Assembly (NCBI GenBank): GCA_002772995.1
Contig: PFCO01000001.1
Location: 64,244 to 128,243, forward strand
DNA from: Candidatus Niyogibacteria bacterium CG10_big_fil_rev_8_21_14_0_10_46_36
GTDB taxonomy: Bacteria > Patescibacteriota > Minisyncoccia > 1-14-0-10-42-19
Direction of reading: 5' to 3'
DNA length: 64,000 nucleotides
Part shown: positions 797 to 40,863 of the stretch, in pieces
How positions within the stretch are numbered: position 1 is the stretch's first letter
Layout of the letters: every line of letters begins with the position of its first letter
Position numbers and translations under genes: made by a program
Notes under the pieces: generated by a model
The model's database searches: none
What the model saw: only the letters and a program-made list of their open reading frames with translations
Told to the model about the DNA's origin: nothing

Positions 797-2704
797 TTAT
801 TTTTGTTCGTCTTTTTTATCGACATCCTCATGCTCCACATCATGCGTTTTTACGCCTCCCTCGCTCGCCGTATCCGCATTACCGTCTTTCTCTTTTTCCT
901 GGGCCTGCTTGTAAAGTACTTCACCAATTTTAGCAAGTGCTTGAGAGAGTTCTTTTGACGCGTTTTCTATCTCCTCCTTAGAGCCGGATTCTTTGAGTTT
1001 CTTTAGTGTTTCTATCTTTGCATTCACATCGTCCCGCACGCCTGCTTCTACCTTATCCCCCGCATCACGCAGTGATTTCTCCGCAGAATAAACAAGGGTA
1101 TCAGCAGCATTTTTGACATCAATGGACTCGCGCTTTTTCTTGTCTTCTTCAGCATGTGCTTCCGCGTCCTTCTTCATCTTTTCTACTTCTTCTTTTGAAA
1201 GCCCGCTTGAGCCCTCGATGCGCACGGATTGAGTTTTACCGGTCGCTTTATCTTTTGCAGACACGCTCAAAATACCGTTTGCATCAATGTCGAATTTTAC
1301 TTCAACCTGCGGGATGCCGCGGGGCGACGGCGGAATGCCGTCTAATATAAACCGTCCGAGCGTTTTGTTGTCACCTGCCATCTCACGCTCTCCCTGGAGC
1401 ACATGAATCTCAACCGATGTCTGATTATCAGCTGCAGTAGAAAATACTTGTGTACGCTCCACCGGCACGGTAGTATTTTTTTCAATAAGCCGCGTCATAA
1501 CGCCCCCGAGCGTTTCAAGCCCCAATGATAAAGGCGTCACATCAAGCAACAGCACATCTTTTACATCTCCCTGTAAAATCCCCGCTTGCACCGCAGCACC
1601 ATCCGCAACCACCTCATCAGGATTAATGGTCTTATTTGGCTCTTTGCCGAATAATTCCTTTACGGCCCTCTGAATAGCAGGCATCCGTGTCTGTCCGCCG
1701 ACAAGAATAATTTCGTCAATTTGGGAAATCTCAAAGCCCGCTTCTTTCACTGCGCGCTTCGTAATCTCAATTGAGCGCGAAATATATTCGCCCACAAGGT
1801 CTTCAAATTTTGCACGGGAAAGTTTTACAAGCAAATGCTTAGGACCGGATGCATCTGATGTAATAAACGGAATATTTATTTCAGTTTCCGGCGTTGAAGA
1901 CAATTCGTGTTTTGCTTTTTCTGCAGCATCCTTTAGCCGCTGGAGCGCAAGGGTATCTTTAGAAATATCAATACCCGAATCCTTTTTGAATTCATCTACA
2001 AGCCATTCAATTATCGTCTGGTCAAAATCATCACCTCCGAGATGTGTATCACCGTCGGTTGATTTTACTTCTATTGTGTCGTTTGAAACCTCAAGCACCG
2101 ATACATCAAATGTCCCTCCCCCAAAGTCATATACTACAATCTGCTCATCATTTTTCTTGTTAAATCCATACGCAAGAGCGGCCGCTGTCGGTTCGTTCAG
2201 AATACGACGGACTTTCAGCCCTGCAATTTCGCCCGCATCTTTTGTAGCTTTGCGCTGTGAATCGTCAAAATACGCAGGCACCGTGATGATTGCTTCTTCT
2301 ATCTTTTCTCCAAGTTTCGCTTCAGCGTCATGCTTGAGCTTCTGGAGTATCATTGCCGACATCTCTTCCGGGCGGTACCACTTTTCGCCCATCTTTACCT
2401 CCACCCCTCCCGCGCTTGATTCGCGCATTTCATACGGCATGAGTTTTTTATCTTTTTGCACCTCCGGGTCAGAAAACTTCCGCCCAATAAAGCGTTTTAC
2501 CGAATATACTGTATTCTGCGGGTTGGTTACTGCTTGGCGCTTCGCAAGAAGTCCTGCGAGCCGTTCGTTTGATTTTGAAAGTGCGACCATAGACGGCGTG
2601 GTACGCGCGCCTTCGGTGCTTTCTAATATTTTGGGCTCTCCTCCCTCAACCACTGCCATTGCGGAGTTGGTTGTCCCAAGGTCAATTCCTAATATCTTTG
2701 CCAT
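797..2704 (-). CDS. dnaK: Chaperone DnaK (Hsp70), 635 aa
   Basis: N-terminus [22 protein letters not shown]..., [10 protein letters not shown], canonical Hsp70 motifs throughout; stop 3 nt upstream of dnaJ start. Confidence 0.97.
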
Positions 2705-2734: not shown

Positions 2735-3265
2735 TTATTCTTTTGAGAGCTTTACGCGTGATGCACGGATGACTTTTCCATGCATGCGGTAGCCTCGTTG
2801 TGTCTCTTCGGCGACCGTGCCCGGCGGGGCGTCTGATTCGGTCTCGCCTACGCTTTCGTGTATCATCATATCAAATGGGTCTCCTGCGCGTACTGGAATT
2901 ACTTCTGCTCCCTTCCGGCGCAACACATCTTCAAGCTGGCTCCGTATCATTAAAATTCCCTTTTCTATGTCGCTCCCTTCCGCATGTTTGAGTGCAAGAT
3001 CAAAACTATCAAGTACGGGGAGGATATCATGTACCATGCCTTCCGTTGCAAAGCGTGCGAGCGCCTGTTTCCGTTCTGCTTCGTCCTTCTTGTGATTGAT
3101 AAGGTCGGCTTTTGCGCGCTGCCATCCTTCCAGATACTCTTGTTTTTCCTTTCTGCATGCCGCGAGATCCGTGCGCAGCTTGTCTATCCGTCCTTCTGCC
3201 CTGTCTTCGCCTTCTTCTACGATCTCAATGTCGTCGTCTTCTTTTTTGTGTTTTGCTCGTGTCAT
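2735..3265 (-). CDS. grpE: Nucleotide exchange factor GrpE, 176 aa
   Basis: Coiled-coil N-term, then GrpE core (RAKADLINHKKDEAER..., GTVAEETQRGYRMHGKVIRASRVKL); sits between hrcA and dnaK. Confidence 0.9.
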   Translation of the reverse strand: MTRAKHKKEDDDIEIVEEGEDRAEGRIDKLRTDLAACRKEKQEYLEGWQRAKADLINHKKDEAERKQALARFATEGMVHDILPVLDSFDLALKHAEGSDIEKGILMIRSQLEDVLRRKGAEVIPVRAGDPFDMMIHESVGETESDAPPGTVAEETQRGYRMHGKVIRASRVKLSKE

Positions 3266-3948
3266 ATTGATTGTAAAAATCTTCGTATAACATCAGTCGC
3301 CCGTTCGTAATCCATGCGTTTCGGGCCGATAGAAATAATAATGCTTGAGCGCGTCGGCCGCCCTACAACTGAACTAAAATGCGAGCCGTCCGGAAACGGA
3401 TTTTCTTTCCCAATAAATACCTGCGGCGCGCTACTCTCATACTGATAAAAATATTTCATACGGTCATGTGCTTCTTCTACGAACGATGCAAACGCGCGCG
3501 CTACATCATATTCGCGGAATTCCGGCTCATCAAAGAGCTCGTCCATCCCCGCCCACAACACAGAATTTTTATCCAAACTCATCATAGTAAAGAGGCCGGT
3601 CTCTTCCGCAAGCTCGTGGACAAACCGATGAAGCGCGGGGACGCTTTCCGGAAGGCGCTCCTCTTTTTGACGCATTCTCGATTCTTCTGCAAGTATCGTG
3701 TCTACAAAATACCGGTATGCCTTATCTGTAGGAACACGCCCCGCAGAAGTGTGCGGCTGTTCTAAGTACCCCTCGTCATCAAGCCGCATCATTATATTGC
3801 GGACTGTTGCGGGGCTTGCCTTGTAGCGGATGTTCCGCGCAATACGAGCAGAAGACACCGGCTCTGCGGTGTGGATATAGTCCCGGATAACATGTTCCAG
3901 AATTGAAAAATCACGGTCTGTTGCTTCCATTGTTTCCATCATAGACAA
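3262..3948 (-). CDS. hrcA: Heat-inducible transcription repressor HrcA (short form, ~226 aa)
   Basis: N-terminal winged-helix region (RDYIHTAEPVSSARIARNIRYKASPATVRNIMMRLDDEGYLEQPHTSAGRVPT). 4-nt overlap with grpE. CIRCE operator immediately upstream. Track start is TTG at 3948; in-frame ATGs at 3940/3937 are the more likely starts. Confidence 0.8.
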   Translation of the reverse strand: MSMMETMEATDRDFSILEHVIRDYIHTAEPVSSARIARNIRYKASPATVRNIMMRLDDEGYLEQPHTSAGRVPTDKAYRYFVDTILAEESRMRQKEERLPESVPALHRFVHELAEETGLFTMMSLDKNSVLWAGMDELFDEPEFREYDVARAFASFVEEAHDRMKYFYQYESSAPQVFIGKENPFPDGSHFSSVVGRPTRSSIIISIGPKRMDYERATDVIRRFLQSI

Positions 3949-8088: not shown

Positions 8089-8475
8089 TTACTTCTTCTC
8101 TAATTTTCGCTTACCGGAACCCATGGTCTGGCGGACATTTCCTCTGCGGGTCCGTGAATTTGTTTTTGTACGCTGTCCGTGCACGGGCAGATTTCTCATG
8201 TGGCGAGTGCCCCGATATGCTTTAATGTCTTTTAATCGCTTTATGTTCGTACGAATGTCGCGGCGCAAGTCTCCTTCTATCGTCATCTGTCCCTCAATAA
8301 TCGCACGGAGGCGATTTACTTCATCAGGAGTTAATTCAGAGACTTTCTTATCCACACCTATCTTTGCCGATTCCGCAATACGACGCGCCAAAGAACGCCC
8401 AATGCCATAAATGGAAGGTAGCGCAAATTCTATTCTTTTATTTTCAGGAATTTCTACTCCTGCAATGCGTGGCAT
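8089..8475 (-). CDS. rpsM: 30S ribosomal protein S13
   Basis: MPRIAGVEIPENKRIEFALPSIYGIGRSLARRI... KAYRGTRHMRNLPVHGQRTKTNSRTRRG. Confidence 0.95.
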   Translation of the reverse strand: MPRIAGVEIPENKRIEFALPSIYGIGRSLARRIAESAKIGVDKKVSELTPDEVNRLRAIIEGQMTIEGDLRRDIRTNIKRLKDIKAYRGTRHMRNLPVHGQRTKTNSRTRRGNVRQTMGSGKRKLEKK

Positions 8476-35593: not shown

Positions 35594-35795
35594 AATCTTC
35601 TTTTTGCGTTTAAACTTCTTTAAGGTCATAGTTCAGAATAGCATCCGTATCGCCAAAAAGAAACTTCCCGGAAAACGACTTTCCTGAGAAAAAAGCGGCA
35701 GCCAATGCTTGTCATCGGGCCACATGTCCCGAAGCGGTATTTCATTAACCAAGAACCACTGCGACTTCATTTCATCACCTTACACATACAAAAAT

Positions 35796-35830
35796 ATTGA
35801 CAAAATATAAATATAATGATATAATCTCAA
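35796..35830 (+). promoter_or_regulatory. Sigma70-like promoter TTGACA-17-TATAAT
   Basis: ttgaca-aaatataaatataatga-tataat; strong SD (ggagg) 8 nt before the ATG at 35868. Confidence 0.55.
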
Positions 35831-35867
35831 AAAGTTAGTATTTCATAAAAAAATACGGAGGTTAAGA

Positions 35868-36080
35868 ATGGCAAAAATAGATAGTCCCAACTGGACGGAA
35901 CACGGATGCGAAAAACACCGCCTTCCCGAAGTCCCCTGTCCCCAATGTTTTGCCGAAGAGGACGCTGATATTGAGGTTCAAATCACTGAAACGGAAGTAA
36001 GGGAGCTTGATTTCAGCCCTGAGCTCTCGGTCCGAGACCTATTACCCCTTGGCTGGCTTGCCGACCGCATAATTGGCTAA
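35868..36080 (+). CDS. Small acidic Cys-containing hypothetical protein, 70 aa
   Basis: Own promoter plus SD; HGCEKH...CPQC possible zinc-binding cluster; lone plus-strand gene. Confidence 0.5.
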   Translation: MAKIDSPNWTEHGCEKHRLPEVPCPQCFAEEDADIEVQITETEVRELDFSPELSVRDLLPLGWLADRIIG

Positions 36081-36117
36081 CCAACATAGTGCTAAGCATC
36101 ACTCTAAACTGCTTTTT

Positions 36118-38799: not shown

Positions 38800-39174
38800 T
38801 TATTGATTACTTTTGAGCACTTCTTTTGCTTGTCTCGCGCCGCGTCGCGAACGAGATTCTTTCTTCCCCTTAAAGCTTTTGATACGCCGCTCAATTCCGT
38901 CTTTTGCTTCGTTCACCGCCGCCTCAAGCGATGCCGCAACCGCGCTCATGCGGAGAGGAAGGCGTCTCCCAGGAACCACGACTTGTGCTTCACAAAACCA
39001 CTGCGTGCTGGCATTGCGCACACTTCGCTTGCGTATCTCTATATCGCACTGGGCGTTCATTTTTTTGTCTATTTTGGGAAGCAGCCGCTTAATAGGAACA
39101 GCAAGCTTAGTATTGACTAACACTTCAATAGATTTTGTAATTTCAAGATTTTTGCTATATATGCGTATTTTCAT
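38800..39174 (-). CDS. hpf: Ribosome hibernation promoting factor (HPF/RaiA family)
   Basis: MKIRIYSKNLEITKSIEVLVNTKL... beta-alpha-beta-beta-beta-alpha pattern of the HPF/YfiA family; stop 3 nt from secA start. Confidence 0.7.
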   Translation of the reverse strand: MKIRIYSKNLEITKSIEVLVNTKLAVPIKRLLPKIDKKMNAQCDIEIRKRSVRNASTQWFCEAQVVVPGRRLPLRMSAVAASLEAAVNEAKDGIERRIKSFKGKKESRSRRGARQAKEVLKSNQ

Positions 39175-39235
39175 AGGGTCAGTATATCAAAAAAGAAGCG
39201 CCCCGTAAATCAGGACGCTTCTCGAGAGATCAAAA

Positions 39236-39361
39236 TTATCTCCTCTTGCGGCGTGAGCTCTTTTTGGTGCTCTTCTTTGCTGCCTTTCTTCGCTTCGTTG
39301 TCTTTCGTTTCGTAGTCTTGCGTGAGCTCTTTTTCGCTGCTTTCTTTCTTTTTTTTGCCAT
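39236..39361 (-). CDS. Candidate very basic K/R-rich small protein, 41 aa (low confidence)
   Basis: MAKKRKKAAKKSSRKTTKRKTTKRRKAAKKSTKKSSRRKRR from ATG at 39361; no clear SD; could be non-coding low-complexity DNA. Confidence 0.25.
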   Translation of the reverse strand: MAKKRKKAAKKSSRKTTKRKTTKRRKAAKKSTKKSSRRKRR

Positions 39362-39631
39362 AAAAAATGCGAAAAAAATTCTACCCAACAAACATCGACC
39401 GCGAGCTGTTTGTTGTTCCAACTCATACTACAATAAAATTGTAATACGAGTTGGAATAGAGTGTAAAAATTTTTTATAAAATTTTCTTGAAAGTACTTCT
39501 ATATATATTATCAAATGATTTATTGACAAAAACAATAAAAAATTTCTAAACCTGTGGATAAATATTTTAAAAAAATATTATACATATGCGCGTTATGCAA
39601 TAAAAAAATATTACATCACGCAAAAAAAATA

Positions 39632-39657
39632 AAAAACTTTTCTCTAGAAAAGTTTTT
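39632..39657. repeat. Perfect 11-bp-arm AT-rich inverted repeat (aaaaacttttc-tcta-gaaaagttttt), flanked by a T-run on the minus strand
   Basis: Read directly; terminator-like on the minus strand (weak, only 2 GC pairs) or a protein-binding palindrome. Confidence 0.5.
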
Positions 39658-39670
39658 ACATGCATTCTTT

Positions 39671-39742
39671 TCCCTGAAAGTCAGGGGGAGGTTTGACTCC
39701 ATCATACATCATGTGTGAGTGCGCTCACCCCTGACCGTCAGG
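39671..39742. other. Candidate structured element: two copies of a CCTGA/TCAGG hairpin flanking the 14-bp perfect palindrome GTGAGTGCGCTCAC
   Basis: cCCTGAaagTCAGGg ... GTGAGTGCGCTCAC c CCTGAccgTCAGG read directly in a 500-bp AT-rich non-coding region. Confidence 0.45.
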
Positions 39743-39810
39743 AAAAAGAATATTCTCTTCCATAATACTACCACCACATGTACGAAAATGAAAGACTCAT
39801 AAAGACCCAT

Positions 39811-39839
39811 AAAAAACGAAAAATCCCGGCAGAGCCGGG
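39811..39839 (-). terminator. Intrinsic terminator (minus strand)
   Basis: Minus strand: cccggctctgccggg followed by ATTTTTCGTTTTTT. Confidence 0.65.
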
Positions 39840-39893
39840 AACTTTCGTGATGATGATGAAATGTGTCAAAAATTGGCACACTCACTTATTAGG

Positions 39894-39922
39894 AGTATAG
39901 CAAATTGCTTAACATATGTCAA
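39894..39922 (-). promoter_or_regulatory. Sigma70-like promoter TTGACA-17-TATACT on minus strand, ~45 nt upstream of the 39811-39839 terminator
   Basis: Minus strand ttgaca-tatgttaagcaatttgc-tatact, read directly as plus 39894-39922. Confidence 0.5.
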
Positions 39923-39942
39923 TAAGTATGCTTTTGGGAAGT

Positions 39943-40863
39943 CTACTCTTCCAGACCATAGAGCTTTTTCAGTTCTAAAATGCCTTCTTTAAAATCTACG
40001 CGAGGCTCCCATCCCAATAGCTCCTTTGCTTTCGAAATGCCGGCGAGCGTATGCTTCGGTTCAAGTCGCGGTTCAATAAACTCATACGGACCTCCTATCA
40101 GTTCTGCTATTTCTAAAACTGTTTTATTGTTTCCTCCGCCTGTATTTATCACTTCTCCCCTTCCTACTTTTTCAGATTCCGCGGCAAGAATATTTGCACG
40201 CACAATATCATAGACATGCGTAAAATCACGCGACTGTTTTCCATCCGGAACAACGGTAAGCTTTTCTCCCTTTTTTCTTTGCTCCAAAAATCTTCCTATA
40301 ACTAAAGCGTATGCGCCTTCCGTATTCGCTCCAGGACCATACACATTAAAATACCGCAAAGAAACCGTTGGGAGACTATAAATGCCGCTGAATAGTTTGC
40401 ACAACATTTCTCCCTGCAATTTTTGCAACGCATACGGACTCAACGGGCGCGGTTCCATTTCTTCTTGCAGCGGGAGTTCTTCTTGATTGCCGTATGCCGA
40501 AGAAGACGCGGAATACACGACTCGCTTTACTTTTGCATCACGCGCGGCAAGCAATACATTCAGCGTGCCGGTAACATTAATATCGTGAGTTGTCCGCGGG
40601 TCTTGTATGGATGGCTGCACACGCGGGAGAGCCGCAATATGGAATACAATATCCGCTCCGGAAAACAAGGGTGCTATATCTTCAAATGAGCGGATATCCT
40701 TTTCTTGAAAATCCGCCTGCGGGTGTAGCCGCTCTTTTTTTCCTGTCAATAAATTATCGATAACAGTTACTCTGCATCCGCGCAAAAGAAGCTCACGCAC
40801 CACATGAGAACCGATAAATCCCGCGCCTCCCGTAACGATTACTTTTTTACCACTGATGTCCAT
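39943..40863 (-). CDS. NAD-dependent epimerase/dehydratase (GalE/UDP-sugar 4-epimerase family)
   Basis: Rossmann VIVTGGAGFIGSH, catalytic YALQK (YxxxK). Confidence 0.8.
   Translation of the reverse strand: MDISGKKVIVTGGAGFIGSHVVRELLLRGCRVTVIDNLLTGKKERLHPQADFQEKDIRSFEDIAPLFSGADIVFHIAALPRVQPSIQDPRTTHDINVTGTLNVLLAARDAKVKRVVYSASSSAYGNQEELPLQEEMEPRPLSPYALQKLQGEMLCKLFSGIYSLPTVSLRYFNVYGPGANTEGAYALVIGRFLEQRKKGEKLTVVPDGKQSRDFTHVYDIVRANILAAESEKVGRGEVINTGGGNNKTVLEIAELIGGPYEFIEPRLEPKHTLAGISKAKELLGWEPRVDFKEGILELKKLYGLEE

Follow-up and report, generated by a model that had tools for sequence, protein, structure and literature searches.

The largest non-coding gap in a 64,000-nucleotide stretch of contig PFCO01000001.1 from Candidatus Niyogibacteria bacterium CG10_big_fil_rev_8_21_14_0_10_46_36 (hereafter the window) lies between an epimerase gene and the hpf-secA genes, and it raises the question of whether its promoter, terminator and hairpins form a leader of the genes downstream, a region of protein-binding DNA or genes in their own right. 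An earlier reading made from the letters alone (the sequence-only reading) had noted an AT-rich island here as the largest non-coding one; no other stretch of the window free of long open reading frames (ORFs) matches 39209-39942 (734 nucleotides) in length, and the G+C fraction drops there to 0.26-0.30. Our answer, to which we attach a probability of about 0.7, is that this island holds a two-gene small-RNA module, RNA A and then RNA B, and downstream of it a promoter and leader that belong to a tiny ORF for a basic protein. The island structures all fold far better than shuffled sequences (z = -6.3 to -7.3), and all of the island features described below lie on the minus strand.

Relatives of the locus came from a SecA-anchored scan of species-representative genomes (L001-L080), from a metagenome scan with the exact pattern GATGTATGNTGGAGTCAAAC (L083, L085) and from contigs encoding SecA homologues (L086-L091). 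The close SecA relatives of the window are all Patescibacteria/Parcubacteria metagenome-assembled genomes. The exact-pattern scan returned five stretches, of which three were chance matches (L081, L082, L084) and two were near-duplicates of loci in the first set (L083 of L001, L085 of L002); the pattern is too strict to reach distant homologues.

Two adjacent small-RNA genes

RNA A is predicted to be about 77 nucleotides long (~39811-39887, its 5' end placed by promoter spacing) and consists of a 5' seed, a hairpin, a single-stranded segment and a terminator. The near-consensus promoter that the sequence-only reading had picked out, TTGACA-17 nucleotides-(TGc)TATACT at 39894-39922, was recovered in a consensus scan with 11 of 12 matches plus an upstream TG. 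The same arrangement, TTGACW-16/18-(TGc)TAnnnT, is found 5-8 nucleotides upstream of GUGAGUG or GUGGGUG in all 11 relatives with a complete region, so that RNA A is expected to start essentially at this motif, which we call s1 (GUGAGUGUGC, 39876-39885). A second segment, s2 (UUCAUCAUCAUCAC, 39847-39860), is single-stranded and is followed by an intrinsic terminator (39811-39848) made up of a GC stem at 39840-39824, an A-tract/U-tract extension and a T-run; stem and T-run were found by a terminator scan, in line with the earlier proposal. The position of the terminator is conserved, and 6 of its 12 stem pairs have double changes. RNA A as a whole folds at -28.3 kcal/mol (z = -6.5), and its architecture is repeated in 12 other genomes. 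The epimerase stop codon (39943-39945) is only 20 nucleotides upstream of the -35 element of RNA A, and hence the epimerase mRNA probably ends at the RNA A terminator.

RNA B (~39617-39758) has an extended -10 promoter, one long hairpin and a terminator of its own; across genomes its length is estimated at ~100-140 nucleotides. The promoter, TGGTAGTAT at 39765-39773, fits TGnTAnnnT, a motif that ends 5-14 nucleotides upstream of the RNA B stalk in 7 of 13 genomes and 35 nucleotides upstream in an eighth (L062). An inverted-repeat search identified stalk arms of 24 nucleotides (39751-39728 and 39687-39664) that are 88% complementary and enclose a 40-nucleotide apex (39727-39688), and the stalk and apex (39664-39751) fold together as one extended hairpin (-46.7 kcal/mol, z = -6.3). 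This differs from the symmetric element described before, in which two CCTGA/TCAGG hairpins flanked a perfect 14-bp palindrome: the repeats belong to one inverted repeat (39664-39687/39728-39751), and the supposed palindrome, GTGAGTGCGCTCAC, is self-complementary at 12 of 14 positions, with positions 6 and 9 forming T.G, and is not conserved as a palindrome in relatives. The AT palindrome and T-run seen at 39657-39617 are indeed present, with perfect arms of 12 rather than 11 nucleotides (39632-39643/39646-39657), and form the 12-bp AU-rich stem and T-run of the RNA B terminator (39617-39657). A hairpin with a T-run occupies the same position in L001, L086, L088 and L091 with a different stem sequence, and in L002 and L087 a U-rich tract follows directly after the stalk.

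More distant copies of RNA B were reached with a first covariance model built from the window, L001 and L002, and a second model (R2) was then built from 11 sequences. True R2 matches scored 45-90 bits, compared with at most 24 bits for matches on the reverse strand; they comprised the 13 loci that entered the model, L062, which was not in it, and two copies truncated by contig ends. Pattern search added L004 (Ryanbacteria), whose copy has a short stalk. All seven individually folded copies, and L062, form the long hairpin, and the stalk sequences are unrelated between lineages. Covariation, which had been suggested as a check along with the sequence-only reading, is present on a MAFFT alignment of RNA B: double compensatory changes occur in 15 of 23 pairs, and 83.5% of paired cells are complementary compared with 65.9% in shuffled alignments (0 of 500 shuffles as high) and 37-53% in slid-partner controls. 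The stalk alignment contains approximately 20 G.U cells and approximately 4 A.C cells which, together with the poor reverse-strand scores, indicates a constraint on an RNA read from the minus strand of the window and not on the DNA.

In contrast to the stalk, the apex is conserved. It consists of an apical helix, P3, in which X (GCACUCAC) pairs with Y (UGGAGU), and of a loop; together these cap a stalk of 25-30 bp that is free to vary. In the window, X (CGCACUCAC, 39715-39723) is the 5' strand of P3 and can pair either with Y or with s1 of RNA A, and the loop (ACAUGAUGUAUGAU) with Y (GGAGU) spans 39696-39714. Neither GCACUC..AC (X), with its closing C, nor UGGAG (Y) varies among the 11 aligned RNA B sequences; only L088 has an extra UC within the X motif. 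The X and Y strands form a helix of 4-6 bp that closes a loop of 10-16 nucleotides.

Two irregular copies of RNA B are recorded here for completeness. At ~1190-1330 (minus) of L089 a complete copy is nested inside the apex of a second, short-stalked copy, the insertion point being exactly between GGCACUCA and the loop, which reflects either self-insertion or duplication, or an assembly artefact. Two contigs from run SRR22387992 (L086 1-52 and L091 1-52) start at the same base inside the apex (TATGATGGAGTCAAACC...), which suggests an assembly break at a sequence common to two co-occurring strains. In the window itself the arm sequences of RNA B occur only once, which rules out a repeat or mobile element there, and GCACTCAC and CACTCAC showed no enrichment.

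Complementarity between RNA A and RNA B

The two genes keep company. RNA A adjoins RNA B in 13 of 13 distinct Paceibacteria genomes, in 11 of them in tandem as separate, non-overlapping loci on the same strand with 25-135 nucleotides between them, and in the other two (L079, L089) in convergent orientation, with the RNA A terminator hairpin standing between the genes in L079. Because of the convergent cases RNA A and RNA B cannot be parts of one transcript, and a single A-B transcript with an internal attenuator was rejected on this ground. The small RNA gene that the sequence-only reading had offered as one option was therefore a sound idea but an understatement, as there are two genes, each with a conserved promoter and terminator.

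Two segments of RNA A are complementary to the RNA B apex. The 5'-terminal s1 pairs with GCGCACUCAC, and the s1:X duplex has 8-12 bp and -11 to -19 kcal/mol in 13 of 13 genomes, which is stronger than the intramolecular P3 (-4 to -10 kcal/mol). In L062 there is a full compensatory swap, with s1 (AAGUGGGUU), X (AACCCACUU) and Y (UUGGGGUU) changed together, and G.U variants of s1:X are found in L001, L076 and L004. The second segment, s2, pairs with the loop and GGAG. Among the 11 genomes tested these duplexes range from 10 to 15 bp and from -11.7 to -16.4 kcal/mol, and the one in the window, formed with the loop and GGA, has 13 bp and -14.4 kcal/mol. Both s2 and the loop are unpaired in most single-molecule folds. 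The sequences that pair differ by lineage, from CAUCAUCAUC : GAUGUAUGAUG in the window to GCAUACAUCA : UGAUGUAUGU in L002, CUCCAAUUUGUCC : GGACAAAUGUUUGGAG in L090 and ACAACAAAUGUC : GAUAUUUGUUG in L076. Cognate s2:loop combinations average -14.7 kcal/mol and non-cognate ones -8.3 kcal/mol. Over eight independent lineages the cognate assignment sums to -117.3 kcal/mol, a value reached by only 2 of 40,320 permutations, namely the cognate assignment and a second one, taken to be a swap of the similar L066 and L076. Shuffled tails were as good as the cognate energy in 0-4 of 500 trials. In L004 and L062, which were later finds, approximately 10-12 complementary bases can be seen by eye. Complementarity between the unpaired segment of RNA A and its partner is hence kept through compensatory change, and the pairing has co-evolved in Niyogibacteria, Ryanbacteria, Giovannonibacteria and further candidate-phylum-level lineages of Paceibacteria.

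We conclude that RNA A is probably a dedicated antisense partner of the RNA B apex that opens P3. The segments are arranged in parallel order, 5'-s1-hairpin-s2-3' in RNA A and 5'-X-loop-Y-3' in RNA B, and the complex would therefore not be a continuous antisense duplex. Instead, s2 would nucleate on the exposed loop and extend into Y, releasing X, and s1 would then capture the released X so that P3 is unzipped. In the end state four helices, namely the RNA B stalk, s1:X, the internal hairpin of RNA A and s2:loop with Y, would form a junction and, since the stalk ties the 5' end of X to the 3' end of Y, they could meet in a regular four-way arrangement. The scheme also suffices to account for the pattern of conservation: X must pair with both Y and s1, and this triple constraint would keep X, Y and s1 almost constant but leave s2 and the loop to drift. 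If the complex forms in vivo, as the conserved pairing leads us to expect, RNA A would inactivate, remodel or mark RNA B, for example for RNase III, of which the long perfect stem is a likely substrate; the opposite direction, in which RNA B titrates RNA A, may also apply. A search for other targets, in which RNA A was slid over each locus with RNAduplex, was dominated by long imperfect duplexes, and no common target emerged.

Several observations weigh against this interpretation. Only 11 of the loci examined, 80 at species level and 6 later contigs, were found to carry the module in the 4-5 kb around secA (scanned loci L001, L002, L004, L023, L062, L066, L076 and L079, later contigs L087, L088 and L090, and others). 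Covariation at s1 comes mainly from one lineage (L062), with G.U variants elsewhere. The parallel order means that simultaneous helices need a junction or pseudoknot-like topology beyond standard co-folding, and the s1 and s2 helices might form sequentially or one at a time. The ends of both transcripts are placed by promoter and terminator motifs. Finally, murB starts 0-10 nucleotides after the stalk in two genomes (L062, L066), where RNA B may act partly in cis.

Alternative explanations and known RNA families

The last point leads to the main rival of our reading, in which RNA B is chiefly a cis-acting leader of the downstream gene, murB in many lineages and the tiny ORF or hpf in the window, working as an attenuator or by sequestering the ribosome-binding site, and RNA A is a trans-acting RNA signal, much as in T-box systems, where tRNA is recognized by two-contact pairing in the same parallel order. 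Gene neighbourhoods speak on both sides. The order module, tiny ORF, hpf-secA is found in the window, L001, L002, L087 and L088, and in L076 without hpf; the cut RNA B copies in L086 and L091 have the same downstream genes (tiny ORF, hpf-secA). Elsewhere murB is the gene nearest to the module (L004 2086-, L062 1622-, L066 2402-, L090 2278-, L089 1408-, and on the minus strand upstream of RNA B in L079; Pfam FAD_binding_4 and MurB_C), and in L023 a small ORF and then a 509-aa ORF stand beside it. RNA B immediately precedes murB, in the same orientation, in L004, L062, L066 and L090; in L062 the first base of the murB ATG coincides with the final base of the modelled stalk, and in L066 murB starts approximately 10 nucleotides after the stalk, which leaves no space for a promoter. 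These arrangements fit a cis leader, as does the U-rich tract directly after the stalk in L002 and L087. However, RNA B has a separate terminator hairpin and T-run in the window, L001, L086, L088 and L091, where the gene that follows is served by a separate promoter with a TTATCCACA box. RNA B also lies 3' of murB in L079 and is divergent from it in L089, while murB is absent from the 64-kb window altogether. We regard a cis leader as unlikely.

The His-type attenuator of the sequence-only reading was a more specific proposal: a leader peptide with four His codons would control terminator read-through into hpf/secA. The promoter, the codons CAU CAU CAU CAC and the terminator do follow one another within approximately 80 nucleotides, and the run is exactly where it was said to be (CAUCAUCAUCAC, 39858-39847). 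Relatives do not keep it, however, as it is replaced by CAUCUACAUCGC in L001 and L083, by CAUCUGCAUCUC in L088 and by unrelated sequence in other lineages. The sole ORF across the run is GTG-initiated essentially at the 5' end of the RNA, lacks a ribosome-binding site and, at 58 aa, reads through the terminator; a search of relatives for a leader ORF spanning the codons found none conserved, and the equivalent frame stops after 9 codons in L066. Downstream there are no his or tRNA-related genes, only an RNA gene after the terminator (RNA B) and then the tiny basic ORF, hpf and secA. In other genomes the module sits beside murB or other genes, and its halves are convergent in two. The run is better explained as the s2 segment of RNA A, which pairs with the RNA B loop AUGAUGUAUGAUGG; in the closest relatives, L001 (CAUCUACAUCGC) and L088 (CAUCUGCAUCUC), pairing to the unchanged loop is kept. 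The attenuator is refuted by the comparison with relatives, and we give it next to no credence. A leader peptide in RNA B (MMYDGVKPPP...) was likewise rejected, as it is not conserved.

An explanation at the level of DNA, as a replication origin or a protein-binding cruciform or operator region, could draw on the conserved perfect TTATCCACA box, the conserved AT-rich palindrome and the G+C content of 26-30%. Yet GC skew is negative in all sixteen 4-kb bins (-0.07 to -0.17) with no switch across 64 kb, the island has one perfect DnaA box and no cluster, and boxes with at most one mismatch number 21 across the window compared with 14 expected; an origin (oriC) was rejected on skew and box count. 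G.U is accepted in the stalk whereas A.C is not, and the opposite strand scores far worse, a signature of RNA; in addition, the stalk sequences are not conserved, the opposite of what a protein-binding site would show. A DNA-level element in place of the two RNA genes is thus extremely improbable. As a more limited claim, the protein-binding module of the sequence-only reading is partly plausible for the TTATCCACA box and the AT-rich palindrome further downstream, but not for the hairpins it had named.

It is also very unlikely that RNA A or RNA B is a divergent member of a known family such as signal recognition particle (SRP) 4.5S RNA, 6S RNA, the raiA-motif RNA or a type I toxin mRNA and antitoxin. 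There are resemblances, in that RNA B is a long hairpin of approximately 100 nucleotides with its own promoter, as 4.5S RNA is, and the convergent genes of L079 with a terminator hairpin between them recall RNA I/RNA II of pAD1 par. Nevertheless, support from Rfam, ARAGORN or a conserved ORF is lacking. No Rfam 15 family matches RNA A or RNA B: at gathering thresholds, the whole window and 10 related loci gave tRNAs only, and a relaxed scan of 901 nucleotides (E <= 10) gave chance-level hits only (snoRNA, miRNA, CRISPR-DR, PsrR1 at E = 4.8, rimP at E = 0.57). ARAGORN found 0 tRNA or tmRNA genes in 39000-40100. Bacterial SRP RNA was rejected because no Rfam match was obtained at E <= 10 or at the gathering score and because the RNA B apex reads GCACUCAC-loop-UGGAG. 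The conserved helix-8 motifs of SRP RNA comprise a GNRA loop and symmetric and asymmetric loops; the GNRA loop and the AGCA/GGA motifs are missing from the apex as read. 6S RNA is about 180 nucleotides long with a large central bubble, whereas RNA B is a hairpin of approximately 90 nucleotides without one and has no Rfam match to that family. A type I toxin mRNA was rejected as no ORF is common to the RNA B copies; the apices read from L023 and L089 lack AUG and those from L066 and L079 have an immediate stop.

Closest in position is the raiA-motif RNA of Bacillota and Actinomycetota, which is independently transcribed, usually from a site upstream of raiA/hpf, and has an association with secA (PMC5737381, PMC10861870). 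It is a non-coding RNA gene directly upstream of the hibernation gene raiA/hpf and near secA, as is the module in the window. The raiA-motif RNA (RF03072) is ~200 nucleotides long with six or more helices (P1-P6), two pseudoknots and 51 conserved positions (PMC10861870), whereas RNA A and RNA B are two simple RNAs without sequence or structure match to it that stand by murB in other Paceibacteria. Its Rfam model gave no match, and the resemblance is positional only.

In mechanism the nearest counterparts are other RNA-RNA pairs. In CopA/CopT of plasmid R1 a short terminated RNA contacts the apical loop of its target and opens the upper stem, which yields a four-helix junction of two intermolecular helices with intramolecular ones on their flanks, as the pairing geometry suggests for RNA A and RNA B. 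Unlike these, CopA and CopT come from opposite strands of one locus and are fully complementary; RNA A and RNA B are separate, chromosomal genes with two short co-evolving segments, the pairing segments of RNA A flank its hairpin instead of lying inside it, and the module is not linked to replication. As RNA A and RNA B are not on opposite strands of the same DNA, a cis-encoded antisense pair was rejected. The par RNA I/RNA II pair of Enterococcus pAD1 and type I pairs in general share the layout of two adjacent small transcripts with several separate complementary segments and, for L079 and L089, the convergent orientation (with the terminator hairpin between the genes in L079), but RNA A and RNA B have no conserved toxin ORF and are mostly in tandem. 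T-box/tRNA recognition also uses two short helices in the same 5'-to-3' order and a recognizer with an intrinsic terminator; in the present module the terminator of RNA A does not precede a regulated coding gene, no antiterminator alternative is evident and the partner is not a tRNA. As for Campylobacter CJnc190/CJnc180 (PMC8687705) and small-RNA sponges, the main conserved partner of a small RNA is another small RNA, and a long perfect stem that RNase III would probably cleave is a further shared feature, but the antagonists there are cis-encoded or derived from other transcripts, and the bipartite pairing in parallel order is unusual.

The tiny-ORF leader and the place of the module in Paceibacteria

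The remainder of the island belongs to the tiny ORF. A TTATCCACA sequence, the DnaA-box consensus, lies at 39553-39561, approximately 23 nucleotides upstream of the -35 element of the probable tiny-ORF promoter, and is kept at this position in L001, L002, L086, L088, L091, L066 and L076. It is best read as a promoter-upstream site of the tiny ORF. In 837 kb of Patescibacteria loci there are 35 copies against approximately 6.4 expected (~5.5-fold), mostly just upstream of promoters. In these genomes TTATCCACA has the appearance of a promoter-upstream site in wide use, for DnaA or for some other factor. Further copies are at 8348-8356 (plus) of the window, L045 7258-, L023 2180+, L056 2327+ and L007 2086+. 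A literature search on TTATCCACA promoter elements in the Candidate Phyla Radiation (CPR) yielded nothing relevant. The promoter itself, read from the sequence as TTGTCA-16 nucleotides-TATATA (39502-39529), is missing from the consensus-scan list because the last base of its -10 element is A; its stretch, GATAnTAnnnATAGAAGT, can be aligned in L001, L086, L088 and L091.

Next comes a conserved AT-rich near-palindrome, AAATTTTATAAAAAATTTTTACA (39462-39484), identical in L001, with 3 mismatches in L002 and as a close variant in L086, L087, L088 and L091. It may be an operator, or else the 5' untranslated region (5' UTR) may begin with it. Two 5'-UTR hairpins follow (39386-39456; -35.9 kcal/mol, z = -7.3). 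Hairpin 1 (39456-39416) has a variable stem, and hairpin 2 (39415-39386), ~25-45 nucleotides upstream of the tiny ORF, carries the nearly invariant loop YCGCGGUCGA, which is conserved as CTCGCGGTCGATGTTT in L001, L002, L086, L087, L088 and L091 on a 9-bp stem that covaries, from C-G to U-A in L002 and L087. Hairpin 2 may be a separate cis-regulatory RNA or an operator.

The tiny ORF (39236-39361) encodes 41 aa rich in Lys and Arg (MAKKRKKAAKK...) and its stop codon is 12 nucleotides before the 13-bp stem of a terminator at 39193-39223. At the equivalent place L001 (~3227-3335), L002 (~3327-3365), L066, L076, L086, L087, L088 and L091 each have an MA(A)KKK... ORF, 12-41 aa long. The ORF of the window has no match in Pfam or NCBIfam and could encode a small basic ribosome- or nucleic-acid-binding protein, or act as a regulatory upstream ORF. 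At 39181-39223 the terminator shares sequence with TTTACG-17-(TG)TATACT, which resembles a promoter and stands just 5' of hpf, and hpf may hence be expressed both by read-through and from a promoter of its own. The second-largest ORF-free gap of the window (35630-36117, 488 nucleotides) lies just 3' of secA and holds an opposite-strand ORF of 70 aa (35868-36080) with a Cys-rich N-terminus.

One lesson of the island is that a run of codons flanked by a promoter and a terminator says little in favour of an attenuator. We found no description of the RNA A/RNA B module in the literature on small RNAs of the CPR or Parcubacteria. Its recurrence beside murB and hpf/secA hints at a connection with housekeeping of the cell envelope or of translation. 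A bolder idea, which we consider doubtful, is that RNA A and RNA B are a two-RNA conformational switch peculiar to Paceibacteria, in which a small RNA with a 5' seed opens the apex of its stalked partner by way of a four-way junction, a housekeeping regulator at murB and hpf-secA and possibly a functional counterpart of the raiA-motif RNA. To our knowledge, CPR genomes are tiny and contain few recognizable regulators, and the pair is a rare regulatory-RNA candidate in this group. With clean promoters and terminators, strong covariation of structure and co-evolving pairing it is suited to direct experiment, and the two-segment pairing in parallel order, which opens a hairpin from both strands, could serve as a compact model of RNA-RNA recognition. 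The position by murB, hpf and secA may in addition give a second handle on the non-coding RNAs of the raiA-motif neighbourhood.

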